From positions 14,599-78,598 of the forward strand of contig JBOIFD010000414.1 in the NCBI GenBank assembly GCA_050741515.1: a DNA stretch of 64,000 nt, given 5' to 3'. The notes below the pieces were generated by a model, which saw only the letters and a program-made list of their open reading frames with translations, made no database searches and was not told where the DNA came from. Within the stretch, counting starts at the first letter, position 1, and each line of letters starts with the position of its first letter. Both the position numbers and the translations under genes were made by a program. The DNA comes from Burkholderiales bacterium. GTDB taxonomy: Bacteria > Pseudomonadota > Gammaproteobacteria > Burkholderiales > SG8-39. Positions 39,375 to 46,086 of the stretch are shown here, in pieces.

Positions 39375-40130
39375 ATGTCAGAGCCGTTGAGCGGTAAGGT
39401 CGCGCTGGTCACGGGCGGATCGCGCGGCATCGGCCGCGCGATCGCGCAGAAGCTGGCCGCCGCGGGATGCGACGTAGCGGTCAACTACTACAACAGCCAC
39501 GCGGCGGCCGAAGCGCTGTGCGCCGAGCTCCGCGGGATGGGGCGGCGCGCGTACCCGATCCAGGCGCGCGTCGGCGAGCCGGAGAGCGTCGCCGAGCTGT
39601 TCGCCGAGTTCGGCAAGCGCTTCGAACGGCTCGACATCCTGGTGAGCAACGCGGCCAGCGGCGTACTCAAGCCCGCGCTCGAGCTCACCCTCAAGCATTG
39701 GCGATGGTGCCTGGAGACCAACGCGCTCGCGCTCAACCTGCTCGCCCAGCGCGCGGTCCCGCTGATGCCTGCAGGGGGCCGCATCATCGCGATGTCCAGC
39801 CTCGGCGCGCAGCGGGCGAGCCCTACCTACGGCTTCGTGGGGGCATCGAAAGCGGCCTTGGAATCGCTGGTCCGCACCTTGGCGCAGGAACTGGGACCAC
39901 GGGGCATCCGGGTGAACGCGGTAAGCGCAGGGGTCGTCGATACCGACGCGCTGCAGTTCTTTCCCAACCGCGACCAGATGCTCGCCGCTTTCGCGGAGCG
40001 CGCGCCGGCCGGGCCGGTGCTCACGGTCCAGGACGTCGCCGGAGCCGTGTACCTCCTCTGTTTGCCGGAGGCCGGAATGGTGACCGGACACACGCTGGTC
40101 GTGGACGGCGGATTCGCGATCTCGGGCTGA
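39375..40130 (+). CDS. FabL-like enoyl-ACP reductase (SDR family)
   Basis: 251-aa ORF. It aligns by eye along its whole length with B. subtilis FabL as I recall it: ALVTGGSRGIGRAIA, VSNAASGVLKPALELTLKHWRW, SSLGAQRASPTYGFVGASKAALESL, VNAVSAGVVDTDALQFFPNR and TLVVDGG. Confidence 0.72.
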   Translation: MSEPLSGKVALVTGGSRGIGRAIAQKLAAAGCDVAVNYYNSHAAAEALCAELRGMGRRAYPIQARVGEPESVAELFAEFGKRFERLDILVSNAASGVLKPALELTLKHWRWCLETNALALNLLAQRAVPLMPAGGRIIAMSSLGAQRASPTYGFVGASKAALESLVRTLAQELGPRGIRVNAVSAGVVDTDALQFFPNRDQMLAAFAERAPAGPVLTVQDVAGAVYLLCLPEAGMVTGHTLVVDGGFAISG

Positions 40131-40138
40131 GGCGCGCG

Positions 40139-40897
40139 ATGCCGACCGACTCGGGACTCGAGGGCAAGGTCGTGATCGTGACCGGCGGCAGCCGCGGCAT
40201 CGGGCGGGCGATCGTGGAGCGGCTCGCCGCGGAGGGGGCTGACGTCACGTTCTTCTTCCGCGACAACGCCGCGGCCGCCGCGGAGGTCGTCGCCGCCGGA
40301 CGCGCCGCCGAGCGGCGCATCGCGGCCGAGCAGGTCGACGTCCGCGATTCGGCGCGCTGCGCCGCCGCCGTCGAGCGGCTCGTCGAGCGTTGTGGCCGCA
40401 TCGACGTGCTCGTCAACAATGCCGGGGTGATCCGTGATAATCTTCTGGCCCTGCTCGAGGACGCGGACGTGCGGACCGTGCTCGAGACCAACGTCGGCGG
40501 CGTGTTCAACGTGACCCGCGCAGTGGTTCCGCACATGATTGCCAAGCGCGCCGGCAAGATCATCAATTTGAGCTCGGTCGCCGGCGACAAAGGGGGCCGT
40601 GGCCAGACCAACTACGCCGCCAGCAAAGGTGCCGTCAACGCCCTCACGCGGGCGCTGGCGGTCGAGCTGGCATCGCGCCGGATCACGGTGAACGCCGTGG
40701 CCCCGGGTGTGATCGAGACCGAGATGTCGGAGGGGATTCGCGAGCTCGCGGCCGACGAGGTTCGCTCGCGCATCCTGCTGCGGCGGTTCGGCACGCCGCA
40801 GGAGGTCGCGCACGCGGTGTGGTTTCTCGCCTCCCGGTACGCGGACTACGTCACCGGGCAGGTTCTGCACGTCGACGGCGGCTTCAAGATGGAGTGA
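40139..40897 (+). CDS. FabG-like 3-oxoacyl-ACP reductase (SDR family)
   Basis: ATG at 40139, 8 nt after the previous stop. Motifs are VIVTGGSRGIGRAIV, LVNNAGV, NLSSVAGDKGGRGQTNYAASKGAVNALTR and HVDGGF. Confidence 0.8.
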   Translation: MPTDSGLEGKVVIVTGGSRGIGRAIVERLAAEGADVTFFFRDNAAAAAEVVAAGRAAERRIAAEQVDVRDSARCAAAVERLVERCGRIDVLVNNAGVIRDNLLALLEDADVRTVLETNVGGVFNVTRAVVPHMIAKRAGKIINLSSVAGDKGGRGQTNYAASKGAVNALTRALAVELASRRITVNAVAPGVIETEMSEGIRELAADEVRSRILLRRFGTPQEVAHAVWFLASRYADYVTGQVLHVDGGFKME

Positions 40898-40903
40898 CAG
40901 GCA

Positions 40904-43514: not shown

Positions 43515-43534
43515 ACGCGCCCGCGACAGCTCCG

Positions 43535-44824
43535 ATGGCGGCCACTCGAGTCCTGGTCACCGGCATCGGGGCGGTCTGCGGCGCCGGCCGGACGCCGGAC
43601 GAGATCCTGGACGCGGTGGAGGCCGGCCGCTCGGCCATCTCGCCCATCCGGCAATGGGACACGACGGGGTGGCCGGTGCGGGTGGCGGCCGAGATCCCCG
43701 ATTACAACCCGAACGCGCTGGTTGCGGACCGGAAGCTGCACAAGCTCATCCGGCGCACCGATCTGCTCGGCCTGTACGCGGCCGGGCGGGCGATCGAAGG
43801 CTCCGGGTTCGTCGGCTACCGCGAGACGCTGGATCCCGATGCCGCCACCGCGGCCAACGACCGGATGGGGGTCTACGTCGGGTCGGGCGGCGGCGGGTAC
43901 CAGAATCAGTACGATTTCTTTCCGCTGCTGACCGCGGCCGACGGCGACCTCGGGACATTCGGCCGGGAGCTCGGCGCGACCGTGAACCCGATGTGGCTCC
44001 TGCGGACGTTGCCGAATAACGTGCTGTGTCACGTCGGCATCCGCTACGGGCTCAAGGGGTCGAACGCCTGCGTGACGAACCACGTGGTGGGCGGGACGCT
44101 CGCGGTCATCGAGGCCGTGGCGGCGCTGCGCACGGCCGAGGCCGATCGCGCGGTCGCGATCGGCCACGACGCGCCGATCGAGCCGCAGATGGTCTTCTAC
44201 TACCACCGTGTCGGCCTCCTCGCGACCGAGGCCGTGCGCCCGTTCGACGCCGGTCGCGACGGCAGCCTGTTCGGGGAGGGCGCCGGGGCCCTGGTCGTGG
44301 AGACCGACGCCGCGGCCGCAAGCCGCGGTGCCACCGTAATCGGCGAGATCCTCGGCAGCGGGTGCACCACCGATGCAGAGGGCCTGTTCGCGATCCGGGA
44401 CGACGGCGACGGGCTCGCGCGCGGGATCGAGCTCGCGCTGGAGGACGCCGGCATCCGCGCCGCCGACGTCGGGATGATCTCGGCCCACGGCAACGGCACG
44501 CGGCAGTCGGACGCGTCCGAGGCGGCCGCCATCCGCCGCGTTTTCGGCCCGGCGTCGCCGCCGGTTACCGCGTTCAAGTGGGCCTTCGGTCATCTGATCG
44601 CCGCGTCGGGACCGGTCGAGATCGTGCTGACACTGACGGCGCTGCGGCGAGGAACGGTTCCTGGCGTGGCCACCTTGCGCCGGCTCGACCCGGCATGCGG
44701 CGAGCTGCCGGTGTCGGCCAAGCATCAGACCCCGCGCAGCGACGTGGGGCTCGTCCTGAGCCGGGGCTTCGGAGGAACCAACGCCGCGCTCCTCGTGCGC
44801 GCCGTGCCCGGCAAGACGCGTTGA
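43535..44824 (+). CDS. Ketosynthase paralogue lacking the catalytic Cys (chain-length-factor-like)
   Basis: ATG at 43535 (MAATRVLVTGIGAV). The whole protein is KS-like. At the Cys position it reads ACVTNHVVGGTLAV instead of TACASGG. The first catalytic His region reads GCTTDAEG, with no His. The second His is kept (ISAHGNGT). Confidence 0.75.
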   Translation: MAATRVLVTGIGAVCGAGRTPDEILDAVEAGRSAISPIRQWDTTGWPVRVAAEIPDYNPNALVADRKLHKLIRRTDLLGLYAAGRAIEGSGFVGYRETLDPDAATAANDRMGVYVGSGGGGYQNQYDFFPLLTAADGDLGTFGRELGATVNPMWLLRTLPNNVLCHVGIRYGLKGSNACVTNHVVGGTLAVIEAVAALRTAEADRAVAIGHDAPIEPQMVFYYHRVGLLATEAVRPFDAGRDGSLFGEGAGALVVETDAAAASRGATVIGEILGSGCTTDAEGLFAIRDDGDGLARGIELALEDAGIRAADVGMISAHGNGTRQSDASEAAAIRRVFGPASPPVTAFKWAFGHLIAASGPVEIVLTLTALRRGTVPGVATLRRLDPACGELPVSAKHQTPRSDVGLVLSRGFGGTNAALLVRAVPGKTR

Positions 44825-46086
44825 TGACCGAAGGCGCCGGGCTGCCTCCGCGTTGCGGAATCGACACGGTCGCGATTGCGCGCATCGAGCGGCTGCTCCG
44901 CGAGACACCCGACGAAGACCTCCGCAATCTCTTCTCCCCGGCCGAGTTGGGCGACAGCGGGGACGGTCCGGGCCGCGCGGCGAGCCTCGCGGCACGGTTT
45001 GCCGCGAAGGAGGCGTGCCTCAAGCTGTTCCCGCGCGAGGCAACGCTCGGGCTCCTCGGCCCGGCGGACTTCTCGGTCGCACGCGACGGCTACGGCGCGC
45101 CGTGCGTGGAGTGCAGCCGGGCAGCGCAGGATGTCCTGCATCGCCACCGCGTTCGATCGATCGCGCTCTCGCTTTCGCACGACCGTACGACCGCGTCGGC
45201 GGTCGCGATGACCGAGGCGGCCGAAACGGTGGTCCCGTTCATCGGCAAGCTCGTCTACCACCTGCTCCCGATCCGCCGCGGGGTGATCCTTGCCAACTTG
45301 CGGCGCGTCTTCGGGAGCACGGTCCCCGGGGCCGAGATCAAGCGACTCGCGCAGGCGCATTACGCCCACCTCGCGCGGCTGGCGGGAGAGTTTCTATGGT
45401 ACCCCTGGCTCTCGAAGGCACGGCGAGCGGCGGTCGTGCGGGTCGACAACGTCGCGGCGATCGACGCCGAGCTGGAGCGGGGCACCGGGGCGATCGTGAT
45501 CACCGGCCACTTCGGCAACTGGGAGGTCGCGACCGCCGCGGCGATCAGCTCCAGCCGGTTCGCCTATGCTCGCGGCCGGTTCCAGTTCGTGCGCCGCGCG
45601 CTGAAGCCCGGGTGGTTCGACGCGCTGGTGACGCGGCGCTTCCGCCGCGCCGGCTTCGGCACGCTGCCCAAGCGCGGCGCTCTCGACGCCATCGTCCGCT
45701 GTCTGGAGAAGGGCGACATGGTCGTTTTCCCCTTCGACCAGCACGCCGGCGGAAGGGACGCCATCCAGGTCGAGTTCTTCGGGCATCCGGCGGGGACCTT
45801 CCGCAGCGTGGCGATCATCGCCATGGCCACCGGCGCTCCGGTGCTCCCCGCGGCGAGCTGGCGTGAGCCCGACGGCCGCCATGTCCTGCGCTTCGAGGAA
45901 CCGTTGCCGGTGATCGAGTGCGAGGACGTGAGCGAGGCGATCCGCCGGAACACGCGCGCCTACAACGCCGCCCTGGAACGCCTGATCCTGCGCCGCCCCG
46001 AGCAGTGGTGGTGGGTCCATCGGCGCTGGAAAGGGGCGCCGCGCGCGCACGATCAGGGCGTCAGTACACCCGGCGCTCGAGCCTGA
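44824..46086 (+). CDS. Fusion protein: AcpS-type 4'-phosphopantetheinyl transferase + LpxL/HtrB-family (lysophospholipid/lipid A) acyltransferase
   Basis: The ATG shares one nt with the previous stop (TGATG). Residues ~10-125 carry AcpS-like motifs: [28 protein letters not shown] and LSLSHD. Residues ~130-420 carry ITGHFGNWE (the H-x4-D/E acyltransferase box as I recall it for PF03279) and end in [11 protein letters not shown], which is typical of that family. Confidence 0.7.

Follow-up and report, generated by a model that had tools for sequence, protein, structure and literature searches.

The seven-gene cassette and its products

The stretch of DNA analysed here, referred to as the window, comprises 64,000 nucleotides (nt) of forward-strand sequence from a Burkholderiales bacterium (GenBank assembly GCA_050741515.1, contig JBOIFD010000414.1, positions 14,599 to 78,598). 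Between positions 39375 and 46086 it carries seven plus-strand open reading frames (ORFs), all intact, which we designate G1 to G7 and which are predicted to form a cassette for the synthesis and transfer of an acyl chain, namely: G1 (39375-40130, 251 amino acids), an enoyl-acyl carrier protein (ACP) reductase of the FabL type; G2 (40139-40897, 252 amino acids), a 3-ketoacyl-ACP reductase of the FabG type; G3 (40904-41329, 141 amino acids), an extended ACP; G4 (41362-42198, 278 amino acids), a double-hotdog 3-hydroxyacyl-ACP dehydratase; G5 (42195-43514, 439 amino acids), a complete FabF-like ketosynthase (KS); G6 (43535-44824, 429 amino acids), a KS paralogue without the nucleophile cysteine that resembles a chain-length factor (CLF) or decarboxylase; and G7 (44824-46086). 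The last of these encodes two enzymes in one ORF, an AcpS-type 4'-phosphopantetheinyl transferase (PPTase) as the N-terminal domain (44824-45216) and an acyl-ACP-dependent acyltransferase of the LpxL/PatA family (PF03279) as the C-terminal domain (45217-46086).

The gaps from G1 to G7 are 8, 6, 32, -4, 20 and -1 nt, where the two negative values denote the start/stop overlaps ATGA at 42195 and TGATG at 44824. The window has a G+C content of about 70%, and its six-frame ORF lists are full of spurious frames; the starts of G1 to G7 are backed by orthologues and by the short intergenic gaps. An earlier note, made from the sequence alone, had placed the same seven genes and both overlaps at these coordinates and had given the products the same domain assignments; the coordinates and gaps are confirmed here, and so are the assignments, by profile searches against Pfam and NCBIfam with curated cut-offs, which were extended by matches to solved structures in the PDB. 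The same profile searches of the cassette and its neighbours reveal no FabD, FabH, thioesterase, AMP-ligase, exporter or glycosyltransferase in or beside it, as had also been claimed. No transmembrane-like segment is found in any of the seven proteins by a hydropathy scan, and a promoter and terminator scan of positions 38300-47100 gives nothing that exceeds the shuffled expectation.

The two reductases are distinguished by their active-site spacing. G1 passes the FabL equivalog model NF005975 (340.8 bits against a cut-off of 328), also matches PF13561, and has the enoyl-reductase arrangement Tyr152-x6-Lys159, which is invariant in 63 orthologues. G2 passes the FabG subfamily model NF009466 (246.7 bits, cut-off 222) and has the ketoreductase arrangement Tyr159-x3-Lys163, invariant in 65 orthologues. 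The Y-x6-K of an enoyl reductase in G1 and the Y-x3-K of a ketoreductase in G2 count in favour of the fully reducing system proposed below.

In G3, the ACP core spans approximately residues 12-70, and PF00550 covers residues 16-69 alone. The phosphopantetheine-bearing serine is Ser46 (nt 41039-41041), which lies in the motif DAESID and aligns with the serine of the DSL motif of solved ACPs. The core is followed by an extension of about 65 residues (approximately 70-135) that is strongly conserved in 22 orthologues, including those of Legionella, with G75, F82, G86, G92, E102, R107, L120, T122, E124, T125 and F126 invariant among them. G3 scores under all AcpP cut-offs (40.6 bits with TIGR00517, cut-off 70.45), and a single-sequence structure model of it is unusable, with a mean predicted local distance difference test (pLDDT) score of 43.5. 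In AcpXL, a specialised carrier of very long chains, the cavity is enlarged by extra structure (PMC4402001), and by analogy the extension of G3 may accommodate a long chain.

G4 is matched by PF07977 in its C-terminal half (residues 165-268), and FabZ structures in the PDB align with residues 159-274 and, weakly, with residues 11-108. The catalytic half is the C-terminal one, which contains His184, in the motif ADHFP and invariant in 67 orthologues, and Asp198. The score with the fabZ model (62.6 bits) is under its cut-off of 155.15, and orthologues of G4 also match the ApeI-like family PF22818.

Both ketosynthase-like proteins contain PF00109 and PF02801. G5 passes the FabF subfamily model NF005589 (431.8 bits, cut-off 387) and has the triad Cys180, His320 and His357; its Cys, His, Lys and His residues are invariant in 73 orthologues. 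In G6, Val184 (nt 44084-44086) aligns with the nucleophile cysteine of FabF, while His318, the lysine and His353 are invariant in 76 orthologues. The cysteine-equivalent position itself varies among these 76 (Ser in 40, Cys in 16, Thr in 12, Gly in 5, Val in 2 and Ala in 1), and the second KS may still be active in some lineages. The residue that precedes this position is His (62 sequences) or Gln (14), which recalls the glutamine of CLFs of type II polyketide synthases (PKSs).

The PPTase domain of G7 matches PF01648 at residues 11-102 (39.9 bits, threshold 25) and the TIGR00556 domain (54 bits, cut-off 45.35), and it aligns with solved AcpS structures over their full length (G7 residues 11-132). 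It has what an AcpS-type enzyme is expected to have, the domain as well as the catalytic Lys and the Asp and Glu that bind Mg: 80-81 of 81 orthologues retain Asp14 and the Lys, Glu63 and Lys of the KEAxxK motif. The transferase domain matches PF03279 over residues 132-403 with 128.4 bits. Its His229-x4-Glu234 (HFGNWE), which aligns with HSGNWD of PatA and is likewise conserved in 80-81 of the 81 orthologues, is the H-x4-D/E motif of the LpxL/LpxM/LpxP family. The top NCBIfam matches of this domain are lipid A lauroyl acyltransferases, all under cut-off (for example 84.1 bits with TIGR02207, cut-off 297.8).

None of G3, G4, G6 and the G7 transferase meets an NCBIfam equivalog cut-off. Across the cassette, the catalytic residues are invariant or nearly so in 63-81 orthologues, the exception being the cysteine-equivalent position of G6. 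That the genes might be pseudogenes, a possibility that the earlier note had kept in view, is rejected: the ORFs are intact, and the catalytic residues and the gene order are conserved. The domains and residues support the claim that the module is self-contained and fully reducing, and that it brings an ACP and a PPTase of its own as well as an acyltransferase of the LpxL family.

Distribution of the cassette and its counterparts

Homologues of the G7 fusion protein number more than 3000 in the database, and both of its domains are present in all of the best 120. In a library of representatives at 50% identity, the fused form makes up a handful of clusters, next to many unfused transferases of about 280-300 amino acids with 30-49% identity. 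A scan of species-representative genomes gave more than 574 loci, 80 of which were retrieved, 66 with enough upstream sequence for counting. All seven genes occur in the same order in 61 of these 66 informative loci, with a median span of 6.66 kb. Such conservation of order is far beyond chance, and the cassette is a real, intact and widely conserved gene unit. A view of the cassette as rare or unique is not tenable.

Proteins of the related loci are 50-92% identical to those of the window, with median identities of 76% (G1), 72% (G2), 69% (G3), 50% (G4), 71% (G5), 64% (G6) and 62% (G7). The carriers seen, all of which belong to diderm lineages, are Burkholderiales (many of them Casimicrobiaceae), NC10/Methylomirabilis, Verrucomicrobiota and Binatia; the two in named genera are Jezberella montanilacus, a cultured strain, and a metagenome-assembled genome (MAG) of Zwartia. 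It should be noted that the labels of several MAG loci look implausible for environmental bins with this cassette, namely Akkermansia muciniphila for L036, L037 and L060, Bordetella parapertussis for L066, L076 and L078, Cyanobium for L057 and Margulisiibacteriota for L031, and that these are not to be taken at face value. Between phyla, identities of 60-76% are combined with unrelated flanks, as seen for L006 and L015 (NC10), L029, L034, L052, L062 and L079 (Verrucomicrobiota) and L026 (Binatia). This high inter-phylum similarity in unrelated surroundings suggests that the seven-gene unit has spread horizontally between phyla as a block.

A partial match in Legionella adelaidensis led to a Legionellales locus, and a search with the second KS of that locus gave orthologues across the genus Legionella, including L. 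pneumophila. The L. pneumophila locus, lpg0358-lpg0363, contains in order a short-chain dehydrogenase/reductase (SDR), a 137-amino-acid ACP, a 299-amino-acid double-hotdog dehydratase, a KS, a second KS and a 281-amino-acid PF03279 acyltransferase. These six genes are colinear with those of the cassette, and by blastp each product matches its positional equivalent, with identities of 60% (G1), 57% (G3), 28% (G4), 58% (G5), 43% (G6) and 41% (the transferase of G7). The ACP, lpg0359, is 57% identical to G3 over 127 amino acids, which include the extension, and the values of 58% and 43% are those of the KS lpg0361 against G5 and of the cysteine-less second KS lpg0362 against G6. The Legionella SDR also passes the FabL equivalog model (394 bits, cut-off 328), and, as in the window, the remaining proteins meet no curated equivalog. 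The cassette is orthologous to and colinear with the Legionella cluster, from which it differs in three respects: the Legionella cluster has no FabG-type ketoreductase gene and hence no counterpart of G2, its acyltransferase is a stand-alone protein of 281 amino acids without a PPTase domain, and it is flanked by rpoA-rplQ, ssb and a major facilitator superfamily gene.

Some products of the Legionella cluster have been annotated before. lpg0359 is listed as a putative ACP (PMC13200437), while lpg0361 and lpg0362 have been called FabB-like and lpg0363 has been called WaaM, a lipid A acyltransferase, in a proteomics study (PMC9112007). The lipid A of Legionella carries long chains such as 27-oxo-octacosanoate, of the 27-oxo-C28 type (PMC7956469; PMC5613085). 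In the literature searched, which included few papers from subscription journals, we found no description of the cassette, no assignment of a product to lpg0358-lpg0363 and no genetic basis for the C28-C30 chains of Legionella lipid A. The Legionella cluster strengthens the idea of long-chain lipid A and lowers the novelty of the cassette, which is less than first thought because the family is common and has already been annotated. The L. adelaidensis match itself (NZ_LR134419.1, 2688 bp, named 'plasmid 10') opens with the 3' end of the acyltransferase gene of the cluster, whose product is 51% identical to G7 residues 295-403; the remainder is of low complexity, and the record looks like an assembly fragment and not a plasmid.

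Among characterised systems, the closest parallel is the rhizobial acpXL-lpxXL cluster, as the earlier note had proposed. Lipid A modified with fatty acids of very long chain (VLCFAs) in rhizobia, Brucella and Legionella has been credited to a five-gene cluster for an ACP, a dehydratase, two KSs and an acyltransferase (PMC5613085). The rhizobial order is acpXL-fabZXL-fabF2XL-fabF1XL-(adhA2XL)-lpxXL, and a dehydrogenase-family gene of the cluster itself is needed for VLCFA formation (PMC11901934). The product is a C26-C30 (omega-1)-hydroxy chain carried by lipid A. Compared by order and domains, this corresponds to G3-G4-G5-G6-G7 on one strand, and both systems have a dedicated ACP, a dehydratase, two KS paralogues, an LpxL-family acyltransferase and a cluster-encoded reductase. 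They differ in that G3 has 141 amino acids against about 92-101 in AcpXL, which has one extra helix; solved AcpXL (2kw2) aligns to residues 13-74 of G3 only and scores 32.3 bits, against 33.4 for ordinary ACPs. Furthermore, G4 is of the double-hotdog kind, G7 unites the PPTase and the transferase in one protein, and the reductases of the cassette are SDRs of the FabL and FabG types, whereas the rhizobial one belongs to the alcohol dehydrogenase family.

Two alphaproteobacterial matches that were inspected are lone acyltransferases or NodE-like KS genes. Six further proteins of 585-652 amino acids (P0292, P0298, P0334, P0345, P0390 and P0403) are 27-30% identical to the G7 transferase, either over two segments or in combination with other sequence, and are other fusions of the same acyltransferase family.

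Mycobacterial FAS-II, the type II fatty acid synthesis (FAS) system of KasA/KasB, MabA, HadAB/BC, InhA and AcpM, is a dissociated elongation system for very long chains. Like the cassette it has two KS paralogues, its own ketoreductase, dehydratase and enoyl reductase, and an ACP with a C-terminal extension, and the AcpM and KasA/B models match cassette proteins below threshold. The scores are all far under the cut-offs and indicate no orthology, the mycobacterial genes are not arranged as in the cassette, both Kas enzymes are active, and the product passes to Pks13 and not to an LpxL-family transferase.

Proposed function and alternative explanations

The cassette is best read, from the sequence comparisons, as a probable, self-sufficient variant of the pathway by which very long chains are attached to lipid A, with an enoyl reductase, a ketoreductase and a fused PPTase in addition and with an extended ACP and a double-hotdog dehydratase. 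In the scheme that we propose, the AcpS-type domain of G7 would convert apo-G3 to holo-G3 at Ser46, and malonyl groups would come from the housekeeping FabD, which is encoded outside the cassette. G5, with its Cys-His-His site, would carry out the condensation paired with G6, which lacks the cysteine, keeps the two histidines and the lysine, and would serve as the chain-length-determining partner and possibly also as a malonyl-decarboxylating primer. Ketoreduction by G2, dehydration by G4 and enoyl reduction by G1 would complete each cycle, after which the LpxL/PatA-family domain of G7, with its His-x4-Glu motif, would move the finished chain from G3 to an acceptor hydroxyl. In full, the cassette would then be a self-sufficient type II FAS-like elongation system in which a saturated and probably very long chain grows on an extended ACP private to the cassette before it passes to a membrane lipid, in the most likely case to lipid A as a secondary acyl chain; we hold this reading with about even confidence. 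The sequences themselves establish the domains and their fusion in G7, the intactness of the active sites, the preserved gene order and the orthology to lpg0358-lpg0363. The pairing of G5 with G6, the priming, the use of FabD, the chain length and the choice of lipid A as acceptor are the parts of it that we infer.

The long-chain lipid A reading is put forward because the gene order mirrors that of the rhizobial cluster and because the Legionella orthologue belongs to organisms with C28-type chains on lipid A. Lipid A is favoured as the acceptor because the curated entries that the G7 transferase matches best are all either secondary acyltransferases of lipid A or the acyltransferase of phosphatidylinositol mannosides (PIMs). 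Also in favour of the reading are the set of domains with their curated scores, the conserved catalytic residues, the retention in G6 of the residues for decarboxylation, the conserved extension of the ACP, the WaaM annotation of lpg0363 and the fact that the carriers seen are diderms throughout.

Several points weigh against it. The exact functions of the Legionella proteins are left open by PMC9112007, and the chain length is deduced by analogy. The rhizobial comparison is one of gene order and domains, and a plasmid collection queried with G7 and G6 gave generic matches of at most 35% identity. The G7 transferase falls under every curated cut-off for lipid A acyltransferases (the best being NF006270, 121.7 bits against 248), and among solved structures it scores 36.7 bits with mycobacterial PatA and 30.5 with LpxM. 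No membrane anchor like that of LpxL is seen in G7 in a simple hydropathy scan, in which no 19-residue window exceeds a Kyte-Doolittle value of 1.43; its N-terminus is occupied by the PPTase domain. Adjacency to lpx genes is limited to one small clade and the locus L031, and the flanks elsewhere are unrelated. Finally, in about half of the relatives the cassette is joined by genes for a PapA5/WS-DGAT-like protein, for an ICMT-like methyltransferase and for lipoproteins, and these accessory genes hint at a more elaborate or a different lipid.

Much of this evidence also fits a second possibility, namely that the same synthesis chemistry serves another acceptor, such as a lysophospholipid, a glycolipid (as PatA does with PIMs), an aminolipid or an undescribed envelope lipid, with tailoring in relatives by the products of four accessory genes, U1 to U4 (see below). 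The G7 transferase is as close to PatA as to LpxM, reaches none of the lipid A acyltransferase cut-offs and is without a membrane anchor; most loci are without any context related to lipopolysaccharide; and approximately 36-38 of the 80 retrieved loci contain a protein with weak similarity to Condensation/PapA_C/WS-DGAT domains, a membrane methyltransferase that resembles ICMT/PEMT and two lipoproteins that bear a GHSQGG motif. Set against this are the core order, which mirrors a cluster for VLCFAs on lipid A, and the genus-wide orthologous cluster of Legionella, whose known unusual long chains sit on lipid A, as well as the best curated matches of the transferase, which are to lipid A enzymes, and a weak similarity of U1 to the lipid A methyltransferase LmtA. 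We consider another acceptor possible but on balance unlikely. A bolder form of the same idea is that a horizontally mobile seven-gene core makes an undescribed envelope lipid, which Burkholderiales, NC10, Verrucomicrobiota and Binatia that live uncultured in soil and fresh water would have in common. Its chain, very long and reduced throughout, would be made by a KS/CLF pair on an extended ACP of a new class, and a soluble PPTase-acyltransferase fusion would attach that chain to some acceptor that is not canonical lipid A; about half of the carriers would add to the pathway an ICMT-like methyltransferase, an acyltransferase of the PapA5/WS-DGAT kind and two lipoproteins that resemble serine hydrolases. 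This we regard as the more doubtful of the two.

The remaining explanations concern the chemistry itself. A cluster of the aryl polyene (APE) kind, or a highly reducing type II PKS, would yield a pigment or a released specialised metabolite and not a structural acyl chain. The combination of a KS with a cysteine-less partner, the ApeI-like Pfam matches of the dehydratase orthologues and the presence of PF03279 acyltransferases in APE-type clusters point in this direction, as do sub-threshold NCBIfam matches to AmcF and AmcE of cispentacin synthesis and to FlxB of flexirubin synthesis. The APE cluster of Escherichia coli CFT073 (apeA-R) indeed shares with the cassette a KS with a nucleophile-less partner, a FabG-like ketoreductase, hotdog dehydratases, dedicated ACPs and a lysophospholipid-acyltransferase-family protein. 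However, it has no enoyl reductase, while the FabL-type enzyme of the cassette, above its equivalog cut-off, argues for full saturation, and its genes for an AMP-ligase, a thioesterase, LolA/MMPL, a methyltransferase and a glycosyltransferase have no counterparts in the cassette. All CFT073 ape proteins were compared, and the similarity is generic: G2 is 41% identical to ApeQ and G5 32% to ApeR, and G5 and G6 are 27-33% identical to ApeR and ApeO. ApeC is a short CLF of 240 amino acids with no match to G6, and neither ApeD against G7 nor ApeI or ApeP against G4 gives a match at E<1e-3. With no one-to-one orthology, membership in the APE family is rejected, and the cassette stands apart from it as first supposed. 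The highly reducing type II PKSs (the ishigamide Iga KS/CLF and cispentacin Amc) are alike in having a discrete KS/CLF heterodimer with a ketoreductase and a dehydratase that work in an iterative manner on an ACP which is likewise discrete, and among the PDB matches of the KS comparison is 6kxd, the Iga ketosynthase. G5 and G6 match AmcF with 228 and 167 bits (cut-off 325) and G4 matches AmcE with 42 bits (cut-off 140), but G5 scores much higher as FabF, its best-scoring class; what these PKSs release are small metabolites, and neither an LpxL-family transferase nor a fused PPTase belongs to them. A product of either type is very improbable. The case for an alternative or stress-specific housekeeping FAS II set, which would feed C14-C18 chains to phospholipid or lipid A synthesis, is that G5, G2 and G1 score above the curated FabF, FabG and FabL thresholds and that the cassette sits behind fabZ-lpxA-lpxB in the window genome. 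Such a set would be expected to contain an AcpP of about 78 amino acids, a single-hotdog FabZ or FabA, and FabD and FabH. In the cassette, G3 has 141 amino acids with a conserved extension and scores below the AcpP cut-offs, the dehydratase is a double hotdog below the FabZ cut-offs, the second KS lacks its cysteine, the dedicated PPTase is fused to the transferase, and FabD, FabH and PlsX/Y/C are absent; moreover, the unit moves between phyla as a block amid unrelated flanks. We rate this as the least probable of the explanations considered.

Should very-long-chain acylation of lipid A be the correct function, such acylation of the outer membrane would extend beyond Rhizobiales, Brucella and Legionella and would be widespread among abundant uncultured lineages of soil and fresh water, encoded in a compact, transferable unit of seven genes to which the host need supply no more than malonyl-CoA and FabD. 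It would also provide the first genetic handle on the synthesis of the C28-C30 chains of Legionella lipid A. A minimal self-activating system with a PPTase-transferase fusion, a KS/CLF pair and an extended ACP could be used for studies of chain-length control and for the engineering of long-chain lipids, and the cultured carrier J. montanilacus makes the question directly testable.

Genomic setting and accessory genes

In the window, the cassette is preceded by bamA, skp, lpxD, fabZ, lpxA, lpxB and a SpoU/TrmH methylase gene (trmH), as identified by Pfam, so that the genes named upstream of it in the earlier note are in place with the exception of rnhB, which Pfam did not confirm, probably owing to the reading frame that was used. 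G1 starts 52 nt past the trmH stop codon. On the other side lie the convergent ppsR (46061-46930, minus strand) and then ppsA (46952-49351, plus strand); the 3' ends of G7 and ppsR overlap by 26 nt, with the G7 stop at 46086 and the stop codon of ppsR beginning at 46061. The downstream order ppsR, ppsA, smpB, ..., guaB, guaA is common to the window and the related locus L081.

Attachment to the lipid A operon, which the earlier note had pointed out, says little about function. The cluster follows trmH only in the window and its two closest relatives, L001 and L081 (G7 identity 83-87%), and the one other lpx-linked locus is L031, in which an lpxB homologue lies about 3 kb upstream of the cassette. 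In L081 and L001, trmH and G1 are separated by the four extra genes U1 to U4 (positions 242-4546 in L081 and 245-4545 in L001), which are absent from the window. DNA alignment against L081 shows that the window up to 39335 aligns with the first approximately 14 nt of U1, whose ATG is mutated to ATC, and that 39360-39399 aligns with the 3' end of U4 together with the beginning of G1; a stretch of about 4.2 kb, corresponding to L081 256-4508 and the genes U1 to U4, is missing. The 52-nt spacer between trmH and G1 (39323-39374, plus strand) is the scar of this deletion of about 4.2 kb. That the cassette directly abuts the lipid A operon is therefore a recent feature specific to this lineage and constitutes weak functional evidence.

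Within the trmH-G1 interval of L081 and L001, U1 encodes an ICMT/PEMT-family membrane methyltransferase, the one with weak similarity to LmtA. U2 and U4 encode paralogous lipoproteins with the GHSQGG motif and no family match, and U3 encodes a protein of 469 amino acids, the one with weak Condensation/PapA_C/WS-DGAT similarity. U2, U3 and U4 have no Pfam match above threshold and no sequence match in the PDB. The set lies ahead of the cassette in the 36-38 or so of the 80 loci mentioned above (e.g. L008 197-4359 and L052 1466-4438), among them loci of Verrucomicrobiota, where the order differs (U3-U2/4-U1). U2, U3 and U4 are protein families without assigned function that are tied to the lipid module.

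At one further locus, L082, the place of U1 to U4 is taken by genes at 2145-4159 for a NIF3-like protein and for a 359-amino-acid protein of the extended-SDR/NAD_binding_4 type ('male sterility', fatty-acyl-reductase-like). This arrangement possibly provides an alternative tailoring step.

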